Virus record (IMG/VR): IMGVR_UViG_2879765931_000003
Length of the DNA stretch: 33,073 bases
Origin: a virus
Lineage: Duplodnaviria; Heunggongvirae; Uroviricota; Caudoviricetes
Direction: 5' to 3' (one strand)
The position numbers and the translations under genes are program-made. A model generated the notes under the pieces. The model worked only from the letters and a program-made list of their open reading frames with translations. It made no database searches and was not told the origin of the DNA. This document shows positions 1-28,231 of this stretch, piece by piece; the first letter of the stretch is position 1; the number at the start of each line of letters is the position of its first letter.

Positions 1-969
1 TTACACATCATTAGTACCTTCCTTATTTTTTGACTGGGACAAATTTGGGACCGATGGGTTCAGGATCGAGTCTATTTGCCGTGCGTGTTCGGTAAGGTGA
101 TTAGGTGCAAGGTGAGCATATCGACGAACCATTTCGATAGACTCCCAGCCTCCCATTTCCTGTAACACTGACAACGGGACTCCGGCTTGAACCAGCCAAC
201 TTGCCCAGGTGTGTCTCAAGTCGTGAAATCTGAAATCATCAATACCAGCCCGTCTCAGCGCCGCTTTCCAGGCTGTGTTTGCGTCATACCGCATCTTCCT
301 TACTGTTGGCGCTTTCGTTCCGTCTGGTTTGGTACAGCTTTCCTTGTACACAAATACCCAACGGTGATGATTCCCGATTTGTTTTTTCAATACGCGACAT
401 GCAGTATCATTCAGCGCAACGCCAATTGCGCGGTTTGATTTACTCTCTTCCGGGTTTATCCATGCCACCCGGCGCTGCATATCTATTTGTTGCCATTCAA
501 GGTTGATGATGTTCGAGCGTCTTAAGCCTGTTGCCAGTGCAAATTCAACAACAGACTTTAATGGCTCCGGACATTCATCAATCAGCCTTTGTGCTTCATG
601 GGGCTCCAGCCAGCGGATCCGTTTATTCTTTGGTTGAGGCACTTTAATAATTGGTGCCTTATCCAGCATTTTCCATTCACGCTCTGCGGCTCTTAGTAGG
701 GCCTTTATAAATGAAAGATGCGTAGCCTTCGTTGCAACGGACGCTGGTTTTGGCGTGTATTCTGGAACAGGTTTCCCTTTTTTTCTGCATGCTTCTGCCC
801 TGAGTTTCCAGTTTTCCTCATGACGCCGGTTCGTCATTTTCTGCATTGCTGAATAAATTTTTGATTCAGTGATGTCTCTTAGTTGCATCCCTGCGAAATG
901 TTGAAGCCAGAATCCGATCCGGCTTTTGTCATCGTCCAGTGATTTCTTATGTGCTTTCTCTTCGAGCCA
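1..969 (-). pseudogene. int: Phage tyrosine integrase, copy A: C-terminal ~320 codons, with the 5' part severed by IS600
   Basis: ORF ends ...[18 protein letters not shown]...[23 protein letters not shown]...TNDV* with stop at 1-3; the R..H..R..Y catalytic region is typical of tyrosine recombinases. Near-identical to the int at 11513-13942. Reading frame runs into the IS600 end at 970. Confidence 0.85.
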
Positions 970-4915: not shown

Positions 4916-5836
4916 TTATTTTCTACCTTTCTTCAAAATATACTTAGGTCTTGATTTTGTTTCTAAGTAAATTCTACCTATATATTCACCGAGAACACCA
5001 ATCCCGATCAGTTGCACTCCACCCAAGAAAAGTATTGATACAAGCAGGGAGGGATACCCGCGTACTGGGTTACCAAAGACAAGGGTGTCTATAATCATCC
5101 ATGCACCATATAAAAATGAAATGCTTGCAACAAACAAGCCTATATAAGTCCATACGCGAAGAGGAAAGGTTGAAAAACTTGTGATACCTTCCAGTGCCAG
5201 ATTCCATAATTTCCAGCCATTAAATTTTGAGATGCCAGCAACACGCTCTGCGCGTACATATTCAACGACATCCGTCTGACCACCCACCCAGCTCAGTATG
5301 CCTTTCATGAAAAGATTGCGCTCAGGCAACAGTTTAATGTTCTCCACAACCTCACGAGACATGAGTCGAAAATCTCCGACATTTTCCTCGATCTTTGGGG
5401 TGCTTATTTTGTTGTGTAATTTATAGAACCACTCAGCTGTCTTACGTTTCAGTCGTCCATCAGTTGAGCGGTCTGAACGTTTAGCAAGCACCATCTCAGC
5501 ACCTGCCTGCCACTTTTCAATAAGATGAGGGATAACCTCAATTGGGTCTTGCAGGTCGACATCAATAGGAATTACAGCATCGCCGCTTGCATGGTCTAAC
5601 CCTGCAAATAAGGCTGGTTCTTTACCAAAGTTGCGTGTAAATGACAGCGGAACAACTAGCGGGTCTGAAACAGCCAGCGCGTTAATAATTGACTCTGTGG
5701 CATCTTTACTTCCGTCATTTATGAATACAATTTCTACTTCATATGGCTTCAACTCTTGGAATTCACGTACCGTTTTATAGAAAACAGGTATCGCTTCTTC
5801 TTCATTGAAGACAGGAACGACAAGAGATATTTTCAT
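4916..5836 (-). CDS. gtrB: Bactoprenol glucosyltransferase GtrB (GT2 family)
   Basis: 306 aa; [20 protein letters not shown]...DGSKD...D.D..D GT2 motifs and C-terminal TM segments; 2 bp upstream of gtrC. Confidence 0.92.
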
Positions 5837-6195
5837 TTCGCATCCCTAAAGACAATGAACTTTGAATAGACGAAACCGCACACCAGACTGATGGCGGAGA
5901 AGGTGATAAGAGTGACTATTGGAGGAAGTGAGCATTTATCAGCTGCCCAACCAACAATCACACTCAATATTCCCATAAATCCCACGTATAACATGTAGCG
6001 CATCGCTGTAGTCGATGCTTTGAATGTGAATCTTGCATTCGCGAAGAAGCTAAAGCTCACAGCCACTACGAAACCTGTGAAGTTTGCCAGAGCCTGACTG
6101 GTATGTGCGGTATAGATACATACACCAAAAACCACCCAGTGTATAAGTGTGTTCAGCACACCTATAGATGTGTACTTTACAAATAACTTTAACAT
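5833..6195 (-). CDS. gtrA: GtrA flippase-like small membrane protein
   Basis: 120 aa, [25 protein letters not shown]...[11 protein letters not shown]; overlaps the gtrB start by 4 nt. Confidence 0.92.
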
Positions 6196-6267
6196 TTATT
6201 TAATCAATGAGCTCTGAAAGGCATGAAGTCTATCATCCAAGTCTCAATTGATCGATACTTGCTATGT

Positions 6268-6320
6268 CTGATGAGACAAAACTGAGACACATAAGGCCTC
6301 ACAATGGCTTGCAAGGCTTT
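6268..6320 (-). promoter_or_regulatory. Conserved upstream block shared with the acyltransferase locus (candidate promoter/leader of the conversion cassette)
   Basis: Reverse complement AAAGCCTTGCAAGCCATTGTGAGGCCTTATGTGTCTCAGTTTTGTCTCATCAG matches 14168-14220 at 43 of 53 positions; both lie about 73-125 nt upstream of the start codon. Confidence 0.45.
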
Positions 6321-6396
6321 ACATGTTTTGATGTGGTGGGACGTGTGAGCGCAGTGTTGATGGGATAATCCTTTGAATTACAAGCGGATTCTTATA

Positions 6397-6442
6397 ATTC
6401 GTAATGCGAAGGTCGTAGGTTCGACTCCTATTATCGGCACCA
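6397..6442 (+). other. Phage attachment-site core: 46-nt 3' end of tRNA-Thr (thrW-type), not an intact tRNA
   Basis: ATTCGTAATGCGAAGGTCGTAGGTTCGACTCCTATTATCGGCACCA is the anticodon-loop-to-CCA portion of tRNA-Thr(CGU) as I recall it; the upstream sequence does not continue the tRNA. Confidence 0.8.
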
Positions 6443-6456
6443 TTTAAATCAATAAG

Positions 6457-6815
6457 TTACCTCGCATTTAAGTAAACTACGTTCTCCTCTTGTGCCGTAT
6501 TTGTGCCATTGCGACTTATAATCGCATCGATTTTGCTCGCGTGCTCGGTGAGATGCCCGGCTGAAAGGTGGGCGTATCTTTGAACCATTTCGAGAGTTTC
6601 CCATCCTCCCATCTCTTTAAGCGCAAGAAGAGAGACACCGGACTGAACCAGCCAGCTTGCCCAGGTATGCCTCAGGTCATGGAAGCGGAAGTTGCTAATG
6701 CCTGCCCGCTTTAACGCTCCCTTCCATGCCTTGTTGCTGTCGGTTCTCATCTTCCTTACCGCTGCTGTTTTTGTTCCGTCGCTTCGGTAGGCAGGTTTGG
6801 TGTGGACAAACACCC
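6457..6815 (-). pseudogene. int: Phage tyrosine integrase, C-terminal fragment (a third, divergent int), 5'-truncated by IS600
   Basis: ...[55 protein letters not shown]...; stop lies 14 nt from the att core, the same geometry as int copy B. Confidence 0.8.
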
Positions 6816-6858
6816 TGAGGTGTACTGGCAATAGCGGACACTACCATTTGTTCTTTTT

Positions 6859-7677
6859 TTAAGCAGCCATCTGATGATATTTTTCCCTGAAGGCAGCCGG
6901 GGAGATATTCCCCAGACGAGAGTGACGACGCTGACGATTGTAGAAAATCTCAATGTATTCCCGTATTACTGAGATGGCTTCATCCCGGTTATTAAAACGA
7001 TAGTGGCTCAGGCTCTCATTTTTCAGCGTTCCCCAGAAGCTTTCCATCGGAGCGTTGTCGTAACAGTTACCTTTACGCGACATTGATGTTTTCAGACCAA
7101 ACTGCTCCTGTATGACCCGGTAATCGTATGCGCAGTACTGTGAACCTCGATCAGAGTGGTGGATTAGCCCGGCAGGTGGGCGCTGGCTCCTGAGCGCCAT
7201 AAACAGGGCTTTACCTGTCAGCTCTTTTGTCATGCGCTCTCCCATGGCGTAGCCGACAATTTCGCACGTATAAACATCTTTGATGCCAGCGAGGTACAAC
7301 CATCCCTCCTGTGTGGCAACATACGTCAGGTCCGCCACCCAGACCTGATTTGGTGCTGTAGGAGCGAACGTCTGGTTCAGCAGATTTGGCGCAACTGGCA
7401 GATTGTGGTTCGGGTTCGTAGTCGCTCTGAACTTGCGTTTCTGCTTACAGCGTAGCCTCAGCTCCTTACGAAGACGTGCCAGTCGGTCACGACCAACGAT
7501 GATGCCATTCTCTGCCAGCTCCGTCTGGAGCCGCCGGGTTCCATATGTTTCGCGAGTGCGGATATGTGCCACCTTAATCTCCGGTTTTAGCCGCTCATCA
7601 CTTTGTTTTCTGTCTGAGGGTTCATGCTGTACCCAGTTGTAATAACCGCTCCTGGATACACCAAATACCTGACACAT
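6859..7677 (-). CDS. IS600 OrfB
   Basis: 272 aa DDE transposase. Confidence 0.88.
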   Translation of the reverse strand: MCQVFGVSRSGYYNWVQHEPSDRKQSDERLKPEIKVAHIRTRETYGTRRLQTELAENGIIVGRDRLARLRKELRLRCKQKRKFRATTNPNHNLPVAPNLLNQTFAPTAPNQVWVADLTYVATQEGWLYLAGIKDVYTCEIVGYAMGERMTKELTGKALFMALRSQRPPAGLIHHSDRGSQYCAYDYRVIQEQFGLKTSMSRKGNCYDNAPMESFWGTLKNESLSHYRFNNRDEAISVIREYIEIFYNRQRRHSRLGNISPAAFREKYHQMAA

Positions 7678-7712
7678 CGCTTCAATGGGAAATTGTTGTC
7701 GCCATTGTTCGA

Positions 7713-8015
7713 TTAACGCGTATTTTTCAGCGACTCCTGTGCAAAATACGCTGTTGCTTTTTTTAATATATCTCGCTCAAGGCGAGCTTCATTTAACGCC
7801 TTACGCAGTTGCAGAATTTCAGATTCCAGTTCAGCCAGCGTGCGGGAACCAGGAGTACCGAGCCCTTTTCTGGCGGCGGTAACCCATTGTCCTAAAGTGC
7901 CTTCAGGAAGAGATAATCGGGAAGCGCCTTCACTGATCGAAAGTTGATTTTCAAGAACCGTTCTGACAGCTTCGGCTTTGAACTCTTTAGAGTAACGTTG
8001 GGTTTTTCTGCTCAT
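7713..8015 (-). CDS. IS600 OrfA
   Basis: 100 aa, near-identical to the other copies. Confidence 0.88.
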   Translation of the reverse strand: MSRKTQRYSKEFKAEAVRTVLENQLSISEGASRLSLPEGTLGQWVTAARKGLGTPGSRTLAELESEILQLRKALNEARLERDILKKATAYFAQESLKNTR

Positions 8016-8177
8016 TATTAGCTCCTTCTGATGCCATTCTATTTCAGGAAGGAGTGTCCGTTAAACTCAGGCTACCTCAGACGTCCCGTATGATGGATAT
8101 GAAATCAAGACAATCACACATCCTGAACCGCCCCGGGAATCCTGGAGACTAAACTTCCTGAGAAAGAGGTAAACAGG

Positions 8178-8500
8178 ATGACTAAAAATACTCGTTTTTC
8201 CCCCGAAGTCCGTCAACGGGCAGTCCGTATGGTTCTGGAAAGTCAGGGCGAATATGACTCACAATGGGCGACAATTTGTTCCATTGCCCCAAAGATTGGC
8301 TGTACGCCGGAGACTCTGCGTGTCTGGGTTCGCCAGCATGAGCGGGATACCGGGGGCGGTGATGGAGGGCTCACCACCGCTGAACGTCAGCGTCTGAAAG
8401 AGCTGGAGCGTGAAAATCGTGAACTGCGCCGCAGTAACGATATCCTTCGCCAGGCTTCCGCTTATTTTGCGAAGGCGGAGTTCGACCGCCTCTGGAAAAA

Positions 8501-8504
<4 letters not shown>
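8178..8504 (+). CDS. IS629-like OrfA
   Basis: 108 aa HTH/leucine-zipper OrfA of the IS3 family. Confidence 0.82.
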
Positions 8505-9387
<883 letters not shown>

Positions 9388-9429
9388 GTTCACAGATAAA
9401 ACACTCTCCAGGAAACCCGGGGCGGTTCA

Positions 9430-11296: not shown

Positions 11297-12294
11297 CTCT
11301 GTTCAGGTGGCCAAATTCAGTGTGCCACTTCAGATATCCAGACCGACTGCCATTAACTGGATACGCACAGGGCGTCTTCAGGCAACACGCAAAGATCCCA
11401 CTAAGAATAAATCTCCTTACCTCACAACACGACAAGCCTGCATTGCGGCTCTTCAGTCTCCGCTGCATACTGTCCAGGTGAGCGCGGGTGATGGCATAAC
11501 AGAGGAAAGAAAATGTCACTCTTCCGCAGAGGTGAAATATGGTACGCCAGTTTCACATTGCCGAACGGTAAAAGATTTAAACAGTCTCTTGGAACAAAGG
11601 ACAAAAGGCAGGCGACAGAACTCCATGACAAGCTAAAGGCTGAAGCATGGCGGGTCAGCAAACTTGGTGAAATACCTGATATAACGTTCGAGGAAGCGTG
11701 TGTCAGGTGGCTTGAAGAGAAAGCACATAAAAAATCACTGGACGATGACAAAAGCCGGATCGGATTCTGGCTTCAACATTTCGCAGGAATACAACTAAGA
11801 GACATTACTGAATCAAAAATTTATTCAGCAATGCAGAAAATGACGAACCGGCGTCATGAGGAAAACTGGAAACTCAGGGCAGAATCATGCAGAAAAAAAG
11901 GGAAACCTGTTCCAGAATACACGCCAAAACCAGCGTCCGTTGCAACGAAGGCTACGCATCTTTCATTTATAAAGGCCCTACTAAGAGCCGCAGAGCGTGA
12001 ATGGAAAATGCTGGATAAGGCACCAATTATTAAAGTGCCTCAACCAAAGAATAAACGGATCCGCTGGCTGGAGCCCCATGAAGCACAAAGGCTGATTGAT
12101 GAATGTCCGGAGCCATTAAAGTCTGTTGTTGAATTTGCACTGGCAACAGGCTTAAGACGCTCGAACATCATCAACCTTGAATGGCAACAAATAGATATGC
12201 AGCGCCGGGTGGCATGGATAAACCCGGAAGTGAGGTAGCCTGAGTTTAACGGACACTCCTTCCTGAAATAGAATGGCATCAGAAGGAGCTAATA

Positions 12295-12597
12295 ATGAGC
12301 AGAAAAACCCGACGTTACTCTAAAGAGTTCAAAGCCGAAGCTGTCAGAACGGTTCTTGAAAATCAACTTTCGATCAGTGAAGACGCTTCCCGATTATTCC
12401 TTCCTGAAGGCACTTTAGGACAATGGGTTACCGCCGCCAGAAAAGGGCTCGGTACTCCTGGTTCCCGCACGGTGGCTGAACTGGAATCTGAAATTCTGCA
12501 ACTGCGTAAGGCGTTAAATGAAGCTCGCCTTGAGCGAGATATATTAAAAAAAGCAACAGCGTATTTTGCACAGGAGTCGCTGAAAAATACGCGTTAA
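12295..12597 (+). CDS. IS600 OrfA
   Basis: 100 aa. Confidence 0.88.
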   Translation: MSRKTRRYSKEFKAEAVRTVLENQLSISEDASRLFLPEGTLGQWVTAARKGLGTPGSRTVAELESEILQLRKALNEARLERDILKKATAYFAQESLKNTR

Positions 12598-12632
12598 TCG
12601 AACAATGGCGACAACAATTTCCCATTGAAGCG

Positions 12633-13451
12633 ATGTGTCAGGTATTTGGTGTATCCAGGAGCGGTTATTACAACTGGGTACAGCATGAACCCTCAGACAG
12701 AAAACAAAGTGATGAGCGGCTAACACTGGAGATTAAGGTGGCACATATCCGCACTCGCGAAACATATGGAACCCGGCGGCTCCAGACGGAGCTGGCAGAG
12801 AATGGCATCATCGTTGGTCGTGACCGACTGGCACGTCTTCGTAAGGAGCTAAGGCTACGCTGTAAGCAGAAACGCAAGTTCAGAGCGACTACGAACCCGA
12901 ACCACAATCTGCCAGTTGCGCCAAATCTGCTGAACCAGACGTTCGCTCCTACAGCACCAAATCAGGTCTGGGTGGCGGACCTGACGTATGTTGCCACACA
13001 GGAGGGATGGTTGTACCTCGCTGGCATCAAAGATGTTTATACGTGTGAAATTGTCGGCTACGCCATGGGAGAGCGCATGACAAAAGAGCTGACAGGTAAA
13101 GCCCTGTTTATGGCGCTCAGGAGCCAGCGCCCACCTGCCGGGCTAATCCACCACTCTGATCGAGGTTCACAGTACTGCGCATACGATTACCGGGTCATAC
13201 AGGAGCAGTTTGGTCTGAAAACATCAATGTCGCGTAAAGGTAACTGTTACGACAACGCTCCGATGGAAAGCTTCTGGGGAACGCTGAAAAATGAGAGCCT
13301 GAGCCACTATCGTTTTAATAACCGGGATGAAGCCATCTCAGTAATACGGGAATACATTGAGATTTTCTACAATCGTCAGCGTCGTCACTCTCGTCTGGGG
13401 AATATCTCCCCGGCAGCCTTCAGGGAAAAATATCATCAGATGGCTGCTTAA
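12633..13451 (+). CDS. IS600 OrfB
   Basis: 272 aa. Confidence 0.88.
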   Translation: MCQVFGVSRSGYYNWVQHEPSDRKQSDERLTLEIKVAHIRTRETYGTRRLQTELAENGIIVGRDRLARLRKELRLRCKQKRKFRATTNPNHNLPVAPNLLNQTFAPTAPNQVWVADLTYVATQEGWLYLAGIKDVYTCEIVGYAMGERMTKELTGKALFMALRSQRPPAGLIHHSDRGSQYCAYDYRVIQEQFGLKTSMSRKGNCYDNAPMESFWGTLKNESLSHYRFNNRDEAISVIREYIEIFYNRQRRHSRLGNISPAAFREKYHQMAA

Positions 13452-13956
13452 AAAAGAACAAATGGTAGTGTCCGCTATTGCCAGTACACCTCAAAGAGAG
13501 TAAATCAAACCGCGCAATTGGCGTTGCGCTGAATGATACTGCATGTCGCGTATTGAAAAAACAAATCGGAAATCATCACCGTTGGGTATTTGTGTACAAG
13601 GAAAGCTGTACCAAACCAGACGGAACGAAAGCGCCAACAGTAAGGAAGATGCGGTATGACGCAAACACAGCCTGGAAAGCGGCGCTGAGACGGGCTGGTA
13701 TTGATGATTTCAGATTTCACGACTTGAGACACACCTGGGCAAGTTGGCTGGTTCAAGCCGGAGTCCCGTTATCAGTGTTACAGGAAATGGGAGGCTGGGA
13801 GTCTATCGAAATGGTTCGTCGATATGCTCACCTCGCACCTAATCACCTTACCGAACACGCACGGCAAATAGACTTGATTCTGAACCCATCGGTCCCAAAT
13901 TTGTCCCAGTCAAGAAATAAGGAAGGTACTAATGATGTGTAACTTATTGATTTTAA

Positions 13957-14002
13957 TGGTGCCGATAATAGGAGTCGAACCTACGACCTTCGCATTACGA
14001 AT
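13957..14002 (-). other. Second phage attachment-site core: 46-nt tRNA-Thr 3' end in inverse orientation, not an intact tRNA
   Basis: TGGTGCCGATAATAGGAGTCGAACCTACGACCTTCGCATTACGAAT is the reverse complement of the core at 6397-6442; the 14-nt spacer to the int stop is nearly identical at both sites. Confidence 0.8.
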
Positions 14003-14167
14003 CTGTAGCACCAATCATAACTATCTGTTTTAGCAAGCATTAACCGCATTCACTAAGCTATAGTTGATGACACAAACAGAAAGTTGATGCATGATGTTGC
14101 CATATATATGTCACAAATACGGCACAACGATCTTCAAACATATAGCCACACATTCACAGAAGAGCAC

Positions 14168-14220
14168 AAAGCCTTGCAATCCAGTGCAAAGCTTGGTGTG
14201 TCTCCGTTTTGTTTCATCAG
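14168..14220 (+). promoter_or_regulatory. Conserved upstream block (paralogue of 6268-6320), candidate promoter/leader of the acyltransferase gene
   Basis: AAAGCCTTGCAATCCAGTGCAAAGCTTGGTGTGTCTCCGTTTTGTTTCATCAG, 71-123 nt upstream of the start codon. Confidence 0.45.
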
Positions 14221-14290
14221 TTACACATAACTATATGATCATTAACTAAAAGTCAGTATACTTGGAGAAATTTTAATTGCGTAATAGAGC

Positions 14291-15463
14291 ATGCATATGA
14301 TTGAAATTAACAGTTTATTATTAATAACATCCGTGATATTGATGTCGTTATTAGCTGTGGGGTTATTTGATAAAATTTCCCCAATAAATCTTGTTGAGCA
14401 CGGCAGGAATAATCAAATAGATGGAATGCGGGGGTTCTTAGCAATTTTCGTGCTTATTCATCACGCAGCAATTTGGAATGGATACTTGTCATCTGGAGTA
14501 TGGGAAGCACCTTCATCAAATCTGTTAGCAAATTTAGGCCAAGTTGGTGTGTCATTCTTTTTTATGATTACTGGTTATCTGTTCTTTTCAAAGATTATCT
14601 CTGGAGATCAGGACTGGACAAGGCTTTATGTATCAAGATTACTACGATTAACCCCAATGTTCATAGTTAGCCTATGTCTCATTTTTATCATTGTAGGTTT
14701 TAAGTCTGGATGGAGAATGCAGGTATCCACAGAAGAGCTTTTTGTGTCAATAATGAAGTGGTTGCCATTCACTGCGCTAGGTATGCCGAACATTAATGAC
14801 GTAAAAGATTCATTTACTATCAATGCCGCTGTAACATGGACACTTGTATATGAATGGTTCTTTTATTTTTCTCTTCCGGTAATTTCCGCGCTCATAAAAA
14901 GAAAAGTCAGTATTTACATGGTTATGATTAGCGCAATATCGCTATTTGTTTTCATTTTATTTTTCAGTAAAATACACATAGCATCATTTCTTTTTGGGCT
15001 CCTGGCATTTTTGCTAAATAAATCAAAGATAGTCAATGGAATTGCCAAAGCAAAAGTAACACCAATTATAATAACTGCGATAATGGTTTTTGAAATGACG
15101 TATTTCAAAACAACTTACGCACCGCTACCACTGATTCTTTGTGGAATAACATTTATCATTATCGCATCAGGTTGTGATTTGTATGGAATATTAAGATTAA
15201 ATATAACCAGAAAGCTAGGAGAAACTACCTACAGCGTTTACCTTCTGCATGGGATATTCCTTTATTGCCTAATGACGTGGATTATTCCTAATAATTACAC
15301 TGAAAATACATTTATCATACTGGTAAGCACAACTGCATTTCTTATTACGTTCACATCATGCCTAACTTTTAAATTAATAGAGACGCCATTCATCAAATTA
15401 ACAAAACAAACCACAACTTTAGTAAAAGAATTAATACCCACATTAACAAACAACAATCAATAA
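14291..15463 (+). CDS. Acyltransferase family 3 integral membrane protein; candidate O-antigen O-acetyltransferase (Oac-like) conversion gene
   Basis: 390 aa, multi-TM; N-terminal ...DGMRGFLAIFVLIHH... and ...SFFFMITGYLF... motifs of acyltransferase-3 enzymes; occupies the cargo slot between att/int and the tailspike; AT-rich. The exact start (14291 or 14297) is uncertain. Confidence 0.78.
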   Translation: MHMIEINSLLLITSVILMSLLAVGLFDKISPINLVEHGRNNQIDGMRGFLAIFVLIHHAAIWNGYLSSGVWEAPSSNLLANLGQVGVSFFFMITGYLFFSKIISGDQDWTRLYVSRLLRLTPMFIVSLCLIFIIVGFKSGWRMQVSTEELFVSIMKWLPFTALGMPNINDVKDSFTINAAVTWTLVYEWFFYFSLPVISALIKRKVSIYMVMISAISLFVFILFFSKIHIASFLFGLLAFLLNKSKIVNGIAKAKVTPIIITAIMVFEMTYFKTTYAPLPLILCGITFIIIASGCDLYGILRLNITRKLGETTYSVYLLHGIFLYCLMTWIIPNNYTENTFIILVSTTAFLITFTSCLTFKLIETPFIKLTKQTTTLVKELIPTLTNNNQ

Positions 15464-15516: not shown

Positions 15517-16224
15517 TTATATTAGTCTGGTAATGCTAAATGCAAACGAACTGGAGATTCCTGCCCCGCTAAGCGTATTGCGCAGGGTCACCCTAAATGT
15601 ATCTACGCCAATATAAGTAACATCACAACTAACTGAATCAGGCGCAGATATAGGTGTTATCTGCACAATATAACCGCTAGCAACTGCTGCGAGCGGATGA
15701 GAAAAGCTAACATCATACACACCTGTAGAAACCACGTTAACCGATGAAACACCAGTAGCAACGTCGATACTACCATTGGCGTTAATTTTTCCCGAGCGTG
15801 TGACTGACAATGCAGAAGCCGATGTTACCTTACTGGTTGTTTCTGTAAAAACACACCCAATGTCAACTACCTCGCAATTAGCTCCTGTTATCCAGTATGG
15901 TCGTTCTGCACTTGGCTGATAATCCCCTGCGCTCTGGAACGTTGTGCCGTTGAGTATGACTGTAACTTTTCCCCCACCTGAGCTTGTTACTTGAATATTC
16001 GTGTGCGTGTATCTTGCACTGCTCACGCGATGAAAATTTCCACCGTTTATAACCACAGTTACAGGGCGCGTCCCAGTATTATCTATAGCAAGGTCTGCCC
16101 CCCCGGCATTAGCCTCAAAGTATGGGTTGTTTAATACCAAAGCGCACGAACCGTTAAGGCCATTTATAGCTAATTGCGCACCACCTGTACTGGAATCCCC
16201 CTGAGTACCATTTCCTTCACAAGT
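15517..16224 (-). pseudogene. Tailspike / tail-fibre receptor-binding protein, C-terminal ~235-aa fragment (N-terminus removed by IS600)
   Basis: Reading frame open from the IS600 boundary to the stop at 15517; Gly/Ser/Thr/Asn-rich beta-strand-like repeats; position downstream of the ejection genes as for P22 gene 9. Confidence 0.5.
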
Positions 16225-16266
16225 TGAGGTGTACTGGCAATAGCGGACACTACCATTTGTTCTTTT

Positions 16267-17085
16267 TTAAGCAGCCATCTGATGATATTTTTCCCTGAAG
16301 GCAGCCGGGGAGATATTCCCCAGACGAGAGTGACGACGCTGACGATTGTAGAAAATCTCAATGTATTCCCGTATTACTGAGATGGCTTCATCCCGGTTAT
16401 TAAAACGATAGTGGCTCAGGCTCTCATTTTTCAGCGTTCCCCAGAAGCTTTCCATCGGAGCGTTGTCGTAACAGTTACCTTTACGCGACATTGATGTTTT
16501 CAGACCAAACTGCTCCTGTATGACCCGGTAATCGTATGCGCAGTACTGTGAACCTCGATCAGAGTGGTGGATTAGCCCGGCAGGTGGGCGCTGGCTCCTG
16601 AGCGCCATAAACAGGGCTTTACCTGTCAGCTCTTTTGTCATGCGCTCTCCCATGGCGTAGCCGACAATTTCGCACGTATAAACATCTTTGATGCCAGCGA
16701 GGTACAACCATCCCTCCTGTGTGGCAACATACGTCAGGTCCGCCACCCAGACCTGATTTGGTGCTGTAGGAGCGAACGTCTGGTTCAGCAGATTTGGCGC
16801 AACTGGCAGATTGTGGTTCGGGTTCGTAGTCGCTCTGAACTTGCGTTTCTGCTTACAGCGTAGCCTCAGCTCCTTACGAAGACGTGCCAGTCGGTCACGA
16901 CCAACGATGATGCCATTCTCTGCCAGCTCCGTCTGGAGCCGCCGGGTTCCATATGTTTCGCGAGTGCGGATATGTGCCACCTTAATCTCCGGTTTTAGCC
17001 GCTCATCACTTTGTTTTCTGTCTGAGGGTTCATGCTGTACCCAGTTGTAATAACCGCTCCTGGATACACCAAATACCTGACACAT
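16267..17085 (-). CDS. IS600 OrfB
   Basis: 272 aa. Confidence 0.88.
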   Translation of the reverse strand: MCQVFGVSRSGYYNWVQHEPSDRKQSDERLKPEIKVAHIRTRETYGTRRLQTELAENGIIVGRDRLARLRKELRLRCKQKRKFRATTNPNHNLPVAPNLLNQTFAPTAPNQVWVADLTYVATQEGWLYLAGIKDVYTCEIVGYAMGERMTKELTGKALFMALRSQRPPAGLIHHSDRGSQYCAYDYRVIQEQFGLKTSMSRKGNCYDNAPMESFWGTLKNESLSHYRFNNRDEAISVIREYIEIFYNRQRRHSRLGNISPAAFREKYHQMAA

Positions 17086-17448
17086 CGCTTCAATGGGAAA
17101 TTGTTGTCGCCATTGTTCGATTAACGCGTATTTTTCAGCGACTCCTGTGCAAAATACGCTGTTGCTTTTTTTAATATATCTCGCTCAAGGCGAGCTTCAT
17201 TTAACGCCTTACGCAGTTGCAGAATTTCAGATTCCAGTTCAGCCAGCGTGCGGGAACCAGGAGTACCGAGCCCTTTTCTGGCGGCGGTAACCCATTGTCC
17301 TAAAGTGCCTTCAGGAAGAGATAATCGGGAAGCGCCTTCACTGATCGAAAGTTGATTTTCAAGAACCGTTCTGACAGCTTCGGCTTTGAACTCTTTAGAG
17401 TAACGTTGAACCGCCCCGGGTTTCCTGGAGAGTGTTTTATCTGTGAAC

Positions 17449-18331
<883 letters not shown>

Positions 18332-18335
<4 letters not shown>

Positions 18336-18658
18336 TTTTTCCAGAGGCGGTCGAACTCCGCCTTCGCAAAATAAGCGGAAGCCTGGCGAAGGATATCGTT
18401 ACTGCGGCGCAGTTCACGATTTTCACGCTCCAGCTCTTTCAGACGCTGACGTTCAGCGGTGGTGAGCCCTCCATCACCGCCCCCGGTATCCCGCTCATGC
18501 TGGCGAACCCAGACACGCAGAGTCTCCGGCGTACAGCCAATCTTTGGGGCAATGGAACAAATTGTCGCCCATTGTGAGTCATATTCGCCCTGACTTTCCA
18601 GAACCATACGGACTGCCCGTTGACGGACTTCGGGGGAAAAACGAGTATTTTTAGTCAT
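18332..18658 (-). CDS. IS629-like OrfA
   Basis: 108 aa, identical to copy 1. Confidence 0.82.
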
Positions 18659-18783
18659 CCTGTTTACCTCTTTCTCAGGAAGTTTAGTCTCCAGGATTCC
18701 CGGGGCGGTTCACGTTGGGTTTTTCTGCTCATTATTAGCTCCTTCTGATGCCATTCTATTTCAGGAAGGAGTGTCCGTTAAAC

Positions 18784-23854: not shown

Positions 23855-25272
23855 TACTCAATCCTTATCTGAGCGCCAGACAGAGTGACAGGTGACTTCG
23901 TGATAACGCGCAATTTGAAGCCGACATTTTTCCTGATGCGCCCTACTCGCTTCCACAAAACACGCTTGTCGTAAACGAACGGTTCATTCTGCTCAATCAT
24001 CTGCTCACGCCCGTAATTGATGCAGTCAGTGGTTGCAGAGAGAAAAAGGCGGTCGGCGTACTGCGCAACGCCAGTTGACGATTCAACCTCAAGGTCGAAC
24101 ACTCTGGCGTTATCCGCTTTGAAGAGTGGAGTAAACAGCAGGTGTTCCTGTTGCTTGTCGTACTGGCTGCTGATATCGAATTGCAGTTTCCCGGTAACAG
24201 ATTCCAGCTTATCGCCGCACGTTATCTGATTGCCTTCGTAAACGAAGTCGATAGCGCGGTACACATCGTCATACAGACCTGTTTTCAGCACACACCATTG
24301 TGGGCCATTGGCGCTTGAAGATGCGTCGTACACGAGGACGTGACGCGGAAGGTGGATAATCAGCAACTCATGAGCATCAAATCGCAGCGATTCCATCACA
24401 CCATCAGCCAGTTCATCAGCAGTGTAGGAGCGGAGGATTTTCTCAATGCTCGCGCTGGCAATTGGTGACACCTGACCGGAGTCGATGATATACACAGACG
24501 GCGCACCCGTTGCCGGATTGCTGATAAACGCATACGAATCAGCGAATGGCGTTTTGCAGTAAGTTCCGGCAATGCCTTTCTGCACCATCAGCGATGGTTG
24601 TGCAACATACAAAGCGGCACCAACGGTGGTTGCGCCAGTCAGGGAGAAATATTCAATAGTCGATGAACCAAAGCAGACGATGAAGTCTCGCCATGTCCCG
24701 ATACCGATGATGCCGTCAGGCTGAGACTCGGCACGATATTGTGCGCTGTAACGGTCAGGATGAGATTCGTCTTCAAGGTCAGTGATAAACCATGAATCAG
24801 TTCCGTCTTTTGACCACGCATAACGCCCACGTAAGCGCGTAATGTCGCGAACTGAACCTAACTCATACTGAGTGAATCCACTGTCTGTAGGCCAGTTTGA
24901 GACGGTTTTGACCGTGCCATCATAGCGATACTCGACCAGTTGACCATTAACGCCTACCGCCTGTGATGTCCGACCATGCGCCATTGATACACGACCACTT
25001 CCGGCAACATCACCGACTTCACTTTCTCCTTTGTACAGCTTGCCGCCACACACGCGATAAACAGCATTCTGCGCCATGTTGTACTCGACGCCGCGAGATA
25101 CACCGTTCACGTCAGAACGTTTGGCAATGCCCGGGAATGAGCGAAGATATCCGCTGCTGTTCAGGATTTCTTTGGGTGTAGCCAGCATATTCACTGGCAG
25201 ATAGTCGATATAGTCGGCGTTTCGGAAGTCTTTGCCGACACCTTTCATAAGCGGAAGTTGCTGAATAGGCAT
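23854..25272 (-). CDS. Tail accessory / head-completion protein, P22 gp10-like
   Basis: 472 aa, [49 protein letters not shown]... Confidence 0.85.
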
Positions 25273-27320: not shown

Positions 27321-28231
27321 TATCGAATTCCTTTATTCAGTTGCGCCTTGAGCTTGCGGTACGTCTCTACATCCCCTTTGTTTGCTGCCGCCTCCATCTG
27401 CTTTTCAATCGCAGAGATATTTGCAGCAACAGCATGTCCCTGAATGGGTTCATCAGGTAACGGGGCTTCTGAAACAGGCTTGGCTCGAGGCTTGAGAGTT
27501 AAACGTTCTGACAGTCGAGTGAGTTCAATCAGCGCGGATTGCCCGTCCATCGCCAGCAACTGGCGTGTTTTCTCAGGATTAGCACCAAGGTGATACATGA
27601 GAGCGGCGGATTTCTCCGGGAAGAGGCGCATGATGTCGGCACCGACTGCTGGCGGCACCAGTTGCATGAATGCATCCTCTTTCTCCTGATAGTCAGGGAT
27701 ATTGAGCTTTTCCGCTGCCTCGTAGTGCTTACGGGCCGCCTCGACGTATTGCGCTGATTGCTGGGTGAACTCCTGAGTTTTGCGACCCTGCTCGGCGACA
27801 GCCTGGCTTCGTGCGTCCATAGCCTTGATCTGCCATTCACTGTTTGCCTGCTGGAAGGCAGCCAGTGCGCGGCTCTGGTCATAGTCGTACTTAGCCAGTG
27901 CATCTTCGGAAAGATAATCGTTAGGGTCTGGTTGTTTTGGTAACTCAGGGTTCACCCGCAGGTGCTCCGGCAACTCTCCACGCTTAACCGCTTCCATCTG
28001 CTGCTCAAGCTCACGCTGGCGTTTGCGTTCGATGCGGCGACGGGCAAATTCAGCATTAGTTGCCGGGTCTTGTTTTGGTTTCTCATCGTCTTTCAGGACA
28101 ATCTCAAAGCCTTCTTCCTGACCTGCGCTGTCGTTGGCATTATCGACAACTAAGCCATCAGCAGATGCCGCTGCATGATTGCCGGGCAGGGTTAATTCTT
28201 CAGAAGCCTGAATGTCGGTGGTTTGGTCCAT
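27320..28231 (-). CDS. Scaffolding protein, P22 gp8-like
   Basis: 303 aa, ...[53 protein letters not shown]... Confidence 0.9.

Follow-up and report, generated by a model that had tools for sequence, protein, structure and literature searches.

A conserved hairpin beside the gtrA and oacB conversion genes as a probable end-piece of lambdoid integrase/attachment modules

The window analysed here, a 33,073-nucleotide stretch of the IMG/VR virus record IMGVR_UViG_2879765931_000003 (Caudoviricetes), holds two Shigella serotype-conversion loci, each adjoining an attachment core and the remains of an integrase gene (Table 1). Site 1 (6150-6470), in which int is followed by attP, the block, gtrA and gtrB, matches phage SfII at 100% identity. 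At site 2 the cargo is oacB, whose DNA is 98.9% identical to that of the Sf101 gene annotated as 'O-acyltransferase B'. The region is rich in insertion sequences. Four IS3-family, IS600-like copies of about 1.2 kb (1009-2236, 6855-8079, 12228-13455 and 16224-17406) encode a 100-aa OrfA and a 272-aa OrfB, and two of them truncate the 5' parts of both int genes at different points, in the same relative orientation and reading towards the block. Two inverted, IS2-sized copies of 1.33 kb (8103-9429 and 17407-18733) are 99% identical and each contain a match to the ALIL frameshift pseudoknot. This pair brackets a series of IS600 (12228-13455), truncated int, att, block, oacB and IS600 (16224-17406), a segment resembling the 'transposon-like structure' that has been described as the carrier of oacB in S. 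flexneri (PMC4159516). A 207-aa open reading frame (15517-16140, minus strand), convergent on oacB and without a Pfam match, may by its position be the remnant of a tailspike gene, as in Sf101. At the very start of the window (1-458), a third int 3' fragment, of the SfX/HK542 type and 98% complementary to 13485-13942, runs off the edge; the att core belonging to it, and a third block if there is one, would fall just outside.

Table 1. Features of the two conversion loci, in coordinates of the window
Feature	Position	Strand	Basis or remark
gtrB	4916-5836	-	Pfam Glycos_transf_2; SfII annotation; after gtrA
gtrA	5833..6195	-	Pfam GtrA_DPMS_TM; SfII annotation
SfII-type gtr core promoter, inferred by P22 homology	6220..6265	-	predicted start near 6220
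Extended -10 TGATAGACT of the gtr core promoter	6227-6235	-	homology with P22
OxyR(C)-like half-site ATAGCAAGTATCGAT	6251-6265	-	8/10
Element copy 1, SfII type	6272..6326	-	hairpin 6287-6326, then tail CTCAGTTTTGTCTCA at 6272-6286
int end and attP core (3' part of tRNA-Thr thrW), site 1	6397..6460	-	attP in SfII record AF021347
SfII-type integrase 3' fragment	6457..6831	-	Pfam Phage_integrase, C-terminal part only; cut by IS600 (6855-8079)
SfX/HK542-type integrase 3' fragment	13478..13942	+	Pfam Phage_integrase, C-terminal part only; cut by IS600 (12228-13455)
int end and attP core (thrW 3' part), site 2	13939..14002	+	HK542 equivalent annotated attP, thrW-like
Element copy 2	14162..14216	+	core hairpin 14165-14198, tail CGTTTTGTTTCA
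Crossover interval in copy 2	14167..14191	+	left, SfX/HK542-type int-attP arm; right, Sf101 oacB cassette
oacB leader	14221..14290	+	no homology to gtr leader; GATC 14237-14240
oacB, O-antigen 3/4-O-acetyltransferase	14291..15463	+	Pfam Acyl_transf_3; 390 aa; PMC4159516

A sequence-only reading of this DNA had drawn attention to a 53-bp block shared by the two loci, and the similarity is readily reproduced: without gaps, the reverse complement of 6268-6320 agrees with 14168-14220 at 43 of 53 positions, as against a best 53-mer match of 29 (mean 26.5) in 100 shuffles of the two upstream regions. The similar spacing it described also holds: counted from the start codon, the block covers 73-125 nt upstream of gtrA (ATG at 6195, minus strand) and 71-123 nt upstream of the acyltransferase gene (ATG at 14291). 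Equally confirmed are the lack of relationship between the cargo genes (Pfam GtrA_DPMS_TM against Acyl_transf_3) and the positions of the GATC sites (6250-6253, 14129-14132 and 14237-14240). In a pairwise alignment of both arms, only two stretches are similar, namely the block and the int 3' end with the att core, which is identical between the sites. The leaders between block and ATG, of 72 and 70 nt, are unrelated: their alignment scores -5, the mean for shuffled sequences is -5.3, and 252 of 500 shuffles score at least as high. A profile built from five copies finds only two in the window (nhmmer E = 2e-22 for copy 1 and 1e-21 for copy 2). The natural limits are slightly wider than the 53 bp, at about 6272-6326 and 14162-14216; we refer to this unit as the element. 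Copy 1 is 100% identical to phage SfII, and the core stem of copy 2 is extended by a GAG/CUC pairing of 14162-14164 with 14202-14204. The arms share other short repeats in different places. The 16-mer CACAAATACGGCACAA falls within the 3' coding end of int at site 1 (6490-6505, minus strand), whereas at site 2 it is found in the arm, past the core (14112-14127, plus strand). GTCCCA repeats show the converse arrangement, past the core at site 1 (6337) and within the int end at site 2 (13892, 13903). Both motifs are possible arm-type sites of integrase, belonging to two attP types that are related to each other.

What does the block do in front of two unrelated genes? The sequence-only reading had proposed a shared promoter or 5' leader, possibly phase-variable through Dam and OxyR as in the P22 gtr operon. 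Such a role would fit the equal distance to both start codons, the likeness of the block's 3' end (TTGTCT or TTGTTT) to a -35 hexamer, and the GATC just downstream at both sites; moreover, the block accompanies a GATC and TGATAGACT in HK620, K-12 and SfII. According to Broadbent et al. (2010, PMC2909390), gtr transcription in P22 starts 25 nt upstream of gtrA, with GATC1-4 at -110, -97, -46 and -33, and 115 bp of upstream sequence suffice for full expression and phase variation, performing no differently from 278 bp. In the same study the -45 core promoter is active alone, but constructs reduced to the core promoter do not phase-vary; gtr LT2_II, which has one GATC, does not vary either. The block of P22 lies at about -187 to -135, outside the 115-bp fragment and upstream of the mapped promoter and the entire switch, so that a block-free fragment performs as well as a block-containing one. 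Neither 6268-6320 nor 14168-14220 contains a sigma-70-like promoter (-35/-10 with 16-18 nt spacing). The promoter scan likewise passes no site in the oacB leader, where a weak candidate -10, TATACT (14257-14262), was noticed by eye only.

The promoter that P22 homology predicts at site 1 lies downstream of the block. The SfII-type gtr leader (window, K-12, HK620) aligns to the P22 core promoter and shares with it the GATC4/OxyR(C) half-site, the extended -10 and the 25 nt to the ATG; the site 1 GATC (6250-6253) is 58 nt from the ATG and 21 nt from the -10, exactly as GATC4 of P22. It differs, however, in lacking the approximately 88 nt that hold GATC1-3 and two of the half-sites, OxyR(A) and OxyR(B). 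A scan for OxyR half-sites with ATAGnTnnnAnCTAT, using P22 as positive control, returned for P22 three half-sites of 8, 10 and 8 of 10 at offsets 29, 61 and 93 (32 nt apart), with four GATCs in two pairs (offsets 28, 41, 92 and 105). Site 1 has one GATC and one half-site of 8/10, the homolog of OxyR(C); site 2 has no half-site of 8/10 or better, and its two GATCs, 108 nt apart, flank the block. Thus the architecture of a P22-like switch, four GATCs and three half-sites, is absent at both sites and, as the block is not the switch either, the sequence gives no reason to expect that gtrII or oacB of this strain should phase-vary through Dam and OxyR in the manner of P22. In HK620, the block is followed (excerpts 1-23; 2500-2798) by the SfII/K-12-type GATC and TGATAGACT segment and then by hkcF, an O-antigen polymerase-like gene; block and gtr-type promoter can therefore precede different cargo. 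Taking this together with the unrelated leaders and with block copies elsewhere that have no co-directional cargo, or cargo at 50 to 352 nt, we regard a promoter or leader function of the block itself as highly improbable.

The distribution of the element points in another direction. With the block alone as query, matches were obtained in 134 phage records, and carriers include lambda, 434, HK97-like phages, P22, L, epsilon34, HK620, SfI/II/IV/V/X, Sf101 and Stx phages, as well as the K-12 cryptic prophage CPS-53/KplE1, where the intS stop precedes it and yfdG (= gtrA) follows. The five-copy profile matches lambda, HK106, phi80, 434, Stx2 phage 1717, P22, L, ST-35, HZ41, HK542, Sf101 and CPS-53. 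In lambda, the copy (27470-27511) lies 27 nt beyond the end of the tI terminator and has the hairpin without a U-rich tail; in HK106, tI and a complete element stand in tandem. The record of phage DN1, a DE3/lambda derivative, annotates opposite int a 162-nt 'antisense RNA' (excerpt 1484-1645) that ends exactly at the hairpin and has no Rfam match. A comparison of the arms with related phages, which the sequence-only reading had suggested, found the block in P22 and SfII and a closely similar arm in SfX (95.7%), and no copy in Sf6 between int and oac. Searches of Rfam 15 gave no match at the gathering score in the window, lambda, P22, HK106 or DN1, and chance-level matches only at E up to 10 for both sites.

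A pattern scan of IMG/VR yielded 106 true copies in 95 unique contexts. Across these, information content per position is high from about -12 to +45 relative to the pattern start and at background outside, and these sharp edges delimit an isolated element of about 57 nt with the consensus AGCACAAAGCCTTGCAATCCAGTGCAAAGCTTTGTGTGTCTCAGTTTTGTCTCA. The inner stem was prescribed by the first search pattern; a second one, which required just the outer stem and the tail, gave 62 matches, all with a homologous inner part and some with pair-breaking variants. A scan of genome contigs with a 15-base pattern returned mostly chance matches, the real ones being confined to Citrobacter, Shigella and E. coli.

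The neighbours of the element are constant on one side only. Upstream, a same-strand integrase gene is found in 54 of the 59 loci with a recognised neighbour, and five integrase types occur, 22 to about 400 nt away: IntS-type genes at 22-35 nt, the group matched by the Sf101 integrase query mostly at about 40-56 nt, the P22 and HK542 types at 144-254 nt with the thrW core between, and the lambda type at about 400 nt, after core and tI. Attachment cores were located where expected in 18 thrW, 12 lambda and 3 argU cases. Many contigs stop about 270 nt upstream of the element or show the host gene ybhB there, which places the element just inside the att junction in the prophage. Downstream, 52 protein clusters are distributed over 86 loci. 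Members of the gtrA cluster (11 loci) start 73-74 nt past the element in ten cases and at 161 nt in the remaining one, and oacB starts at 72 nt in the IMG/VR contexts; elsewhere the element is followed by other acyltransferase genes in either orientation, by genes for tail fibres, by many genes of unknown kind, or by no cargo. Convergent P22-like tailspike genes often stop flush with the element, several ending within 0-130 nt of it. Thus, the element is independent of the cargo, and the spacing of about 72 nt is not general. The earlier proposal that the block travels with the att arm rather than with the cargo is borne out insofar as it belongs to the int/att side, although not as a promoter or leader that the cargo genes share. 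Indeed, the possibility raised there, that the similarity is common to thrW-proximal sequence whatever the cargo, turns out to be true in a broader sense, as the block also occurs regardless of thrW.

What kind of signal, then, would stand at the far end of an integrase module? The same long hairpin is predicted in all five copies that were folded, in which a C/A mismatch separates the outer stem (8-10 bp) from an inner TTGCA/TGCAA stem with a loop of 6 nt. Predicted energies are -25.3 kcal/mol at site 1 (z = -4.1) and -20.5 kcal/mol at site 2 (z = -2.2), with a mean of -18 kcal/mol over the 95 contexts. Both window copies have the stable, G+C-containing hairpin of an intrinsic terminator, and the same-strand integrase upstream (54/59 loci) places the element at the 3' end of a transcription unit. 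The U-tract is strand-specific: at least five U in an 8-nt window starting 0-2 nt after the bulge-extended stem occur in 69% of contexts in int direction versus 9% in reverse, and a T-run of four or more follows the hairpin in 73% versus 15%. The U-run begins 5-6 nt past the core stem, unless the bulged GAG/CUC extension is allowed; a strict terminator scan flagged the site 1/SfII block (minus strand in the window) and left the blocks of P22, K-12 CPS-53 and site 2 unflagged. Outer-stem cells are paired in 93%, a share that drops to 17-69% once the 3' partner is displaced by 1-3 columns. Stem variation is mostly wobble-compatible; with little variation overall, few truly compensatory changes and pairs of the inner stem broken in some copies, covariation does not prove the structure. 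Loop and tail are also conserved in sequence, beyond what a generic terminator needs.

In this light, the element is already known, as an annotated, predicted terminator of the int or excision transcript. The HK620 record (NC_002730, 38289..23) labels it 'terminator for prophage excision transcript; XIS', the epsilon34 record (NC_011976, 21499-21520) 'possible rho-independent terminator for transcription from int', and the SfII record (24720-24766, equal to 6282-6328 of the window) 'putative rho-independent terminator', while phage L has a terminator annotated on the opposite strand. The SfII and L annotations derive from in-silico prediction programs, and no sign of an experimental basis was found for those of HK620 and epsilon34. 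Supplementary tables of E. coli Term-seq have no entries for intS or yfdG, and the BTP1 transcriptome paper makes no mention of the element site. We consider it probable, with moderate confidence, that the element is the closing hairpin and U-tract of the int/att module, most likely an intrinsic terminator or a 3'-end hairpin for int and excision transcripts; the alternatives weighed below are less likely. The block is a real and ordinary feature, for which a terminator function is predicted.

Conservation beyond the needs of a terminator would suit a specific processing site, as in a retroregulator of the lambda sib kind. On read-through, the A/G-rich 5' flank would pair with the U-tract, RNase III would cleave and int mRNA would be destabilised, with an effect in the phage form, where the element is linked to int, and none in the prophage, where attP separates the two. 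The P22-, SfII- and lambda-type elements do lie beyond attP downstream of int, following the same logic as sib, and in predicted folds CGAAA or ACAGAA pairs with the U-tract, which lengthens the stem. In lambda, however, the element is separate from tI/sib and tailless. Moreover, attP stands between int and element in thrW, argU and lambda-type modules but not in the IntS type (HK620, CPS-53), where it lies upstream of int and the element is never separated from the gene. As the 5' flank is not conserved either, and no report of RNase III acting on the element was found, a sib-like role appears unlikely.

The strand opposite int shows TTGC-N6-TTGC, and P22-type copies carry three phased TTGC, which recalls the binding sites of CII and C1; on this interpretation the element would be a CII-dependent promoter or a roadblock during the establishment of lysogeny. 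At site 2 the bottom strand reads TTGC-ACTGGA-TTGC, lambda pI has the same box, and the block of epsilon34 bears two 'putative CII-binding sites' in its GenBank record, the corresponding paper suggesting that CII may activate the conversion cassette (PMC2629481). The box is directed away from the cargo, though, and antisense to int; a CII-dependent promoter would have its -10 about 13 nt downstream of the box, but at the distance seen in pI and pRE no -10-like sequence is apparent by eye, the region being non-conserved flank. Site 1 (SfII) is without the box on both strands, and those of HK106 and phi80 are imperfect. Furthermore, a TTGCA-N6-TGCAA hairpin produces the box automatically if the first base of the loop is A. 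A CII/C1 site is thus, in our estimate, very unlikely to be what the element represents.

Is the element, instead, a passive boundary, maintained because recombinants within it are viable, or a part of the attP arm with Int, IHF or Xis sites? The composition of site 2 has a bearing on this. From 13940 to 14212, the sequence follows the int-attP arms of coliphage HK542 (97.8% identity) and of SfX (95.7%), and HK542 is at the equivalent place without cargo, having only a convergent tail-fibre gene. From 14159 to 14340, it is 98.9% identical to the oacB cassette of Sf101, a phage that integrates elsewhere, at sbcB (PMC4159516). The two similarities overlap inside the block, and the alignment differences that bound the crossover are those at 14166 and 14192. 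Site 2 is a recombinant with its crossover inside the block. In the Sf101 record, the 'hypothetical protein' upstream of oacB (excerpt 2138-2386) ends with an IntS-type integrase C-terminal sequence. With such a terminus just upstream, the oacB cassette of Sf101 seems to have been acquired along with an int remnant and the block.

This crossover, and the shuffling of flanks on both sides in many phages, would be in keeping with a passive linker, as would the 70-150 nt between element and core in P22 and SfII, a plausible range for arm sites, with an arm role. A mere linker would, however, require neither the fixed strand relative to int nor the strand-specific asymmetry of the U-tract, and the lambda copy, over 200 nt away from the core, falls outside the Int sites annotated there. 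We therefore hold either form of this explanation to be quite unlikely. Two candidates were rejected outright: a general role as attP arm site, given the five integrase types and the location of attP upstream of int in some phages, and an integron attC-like cassette, as the cargo is not flanked by a second copy and the window has only two.

How could a terminator at the end of the integrase module have come to stand before two unrelated conversion genes? In the scenario we favour, the element marks where the integrase/attachment module of enterobacterial lambdoid phages has its distal end. On transcription in the direction of int, it folds by prediction into a hairpin of 14-20 bp followed by a U-rich tract, and it would end or cap int transcripts. 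In the prophage, it would block read-in from outside, here from the IS600 copies that truncate the int genes, and so insulate a downstream moron promoter. Conversion cassettes such as gtrABC and oacB would bring their own compact promoters and be inserted directly after the element, which would account for two unrelated genes starting about 72 nt past the block; the similar spacing at both sites would then be a coincidence of promoter-plus-leader length.

Being nearly identical amid unrelated flanks, the element also serves as a homologous crossover point at which int/att modules and cargo are reassorted, as site 2 illustrates. Going further, it could be a sequence-specific, pan-lambdoid 'linker' under selection, for instance as an RNase III or CII/C1 target, and the preferred crossover point for swapping conversion cassettes (gtr, oac, wzy-like and others). 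We are doubtful about this extension; if it were true, the oacB locus of the window would be one caught example of cassette swapping. For the two loci themselves, what stands beside the serotype-conversion genes is best seen as an end-piece of the integrase module and not as a common switch of O-antigen modification. A single hairpin of about 57 nt is conserved from lambda to P22-like phages, with conversion genes inserted just after it, and it can be used as a landmark for cargo genes at the ends of prophages.

Among known systems, the closest are the elements annotated in HK620 (ACAAAACCTTGCAATCCAGTGCAAAGCTTTGT) and epsilon34 (CAAAGCCTTGCAAACCGATGCAAAGC), which are the same element, in the same place directly after int or attP and in the same orientation. 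They differ from the window, where thrW is the site, in their modules and cargo: HK620 has an argW IntS-type integrase and hkcF, epsilon34 an argU integrase of the DLP12 type and gtrABC. With lambda tI/sib, the element of P22- and SfII-type phages has in common a hairpin placed past both int and attP and a role in ending int transcripts, which is predicted in the case of the element; the two are not homologous, however, and coexist as separate units, 27 nt apart in lambda and in tandem also in HK106. The Sf6 record carries 'bsq' features (bsq2, bsq3), yet the phage is without the element between int and oac. Morons and the module 'boundary sequences' of lambdoid phages were reportedly treated by Juhala et al. 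in 2000 and by Clark et al. in 2001. Boundary sequences are short, conserved and situated where modules with unrelated flanks meet, and morons carry their own promoter beside a terminator. The element resembles this arrangement in being short and conserved, in its position at a module junction between unrelated flanks, and in the presence of cargo with its own promoter. Its value to phage genomics is modest, and it gives the old idea that modules are exchanged at a 'linker sequence' a concrete case.
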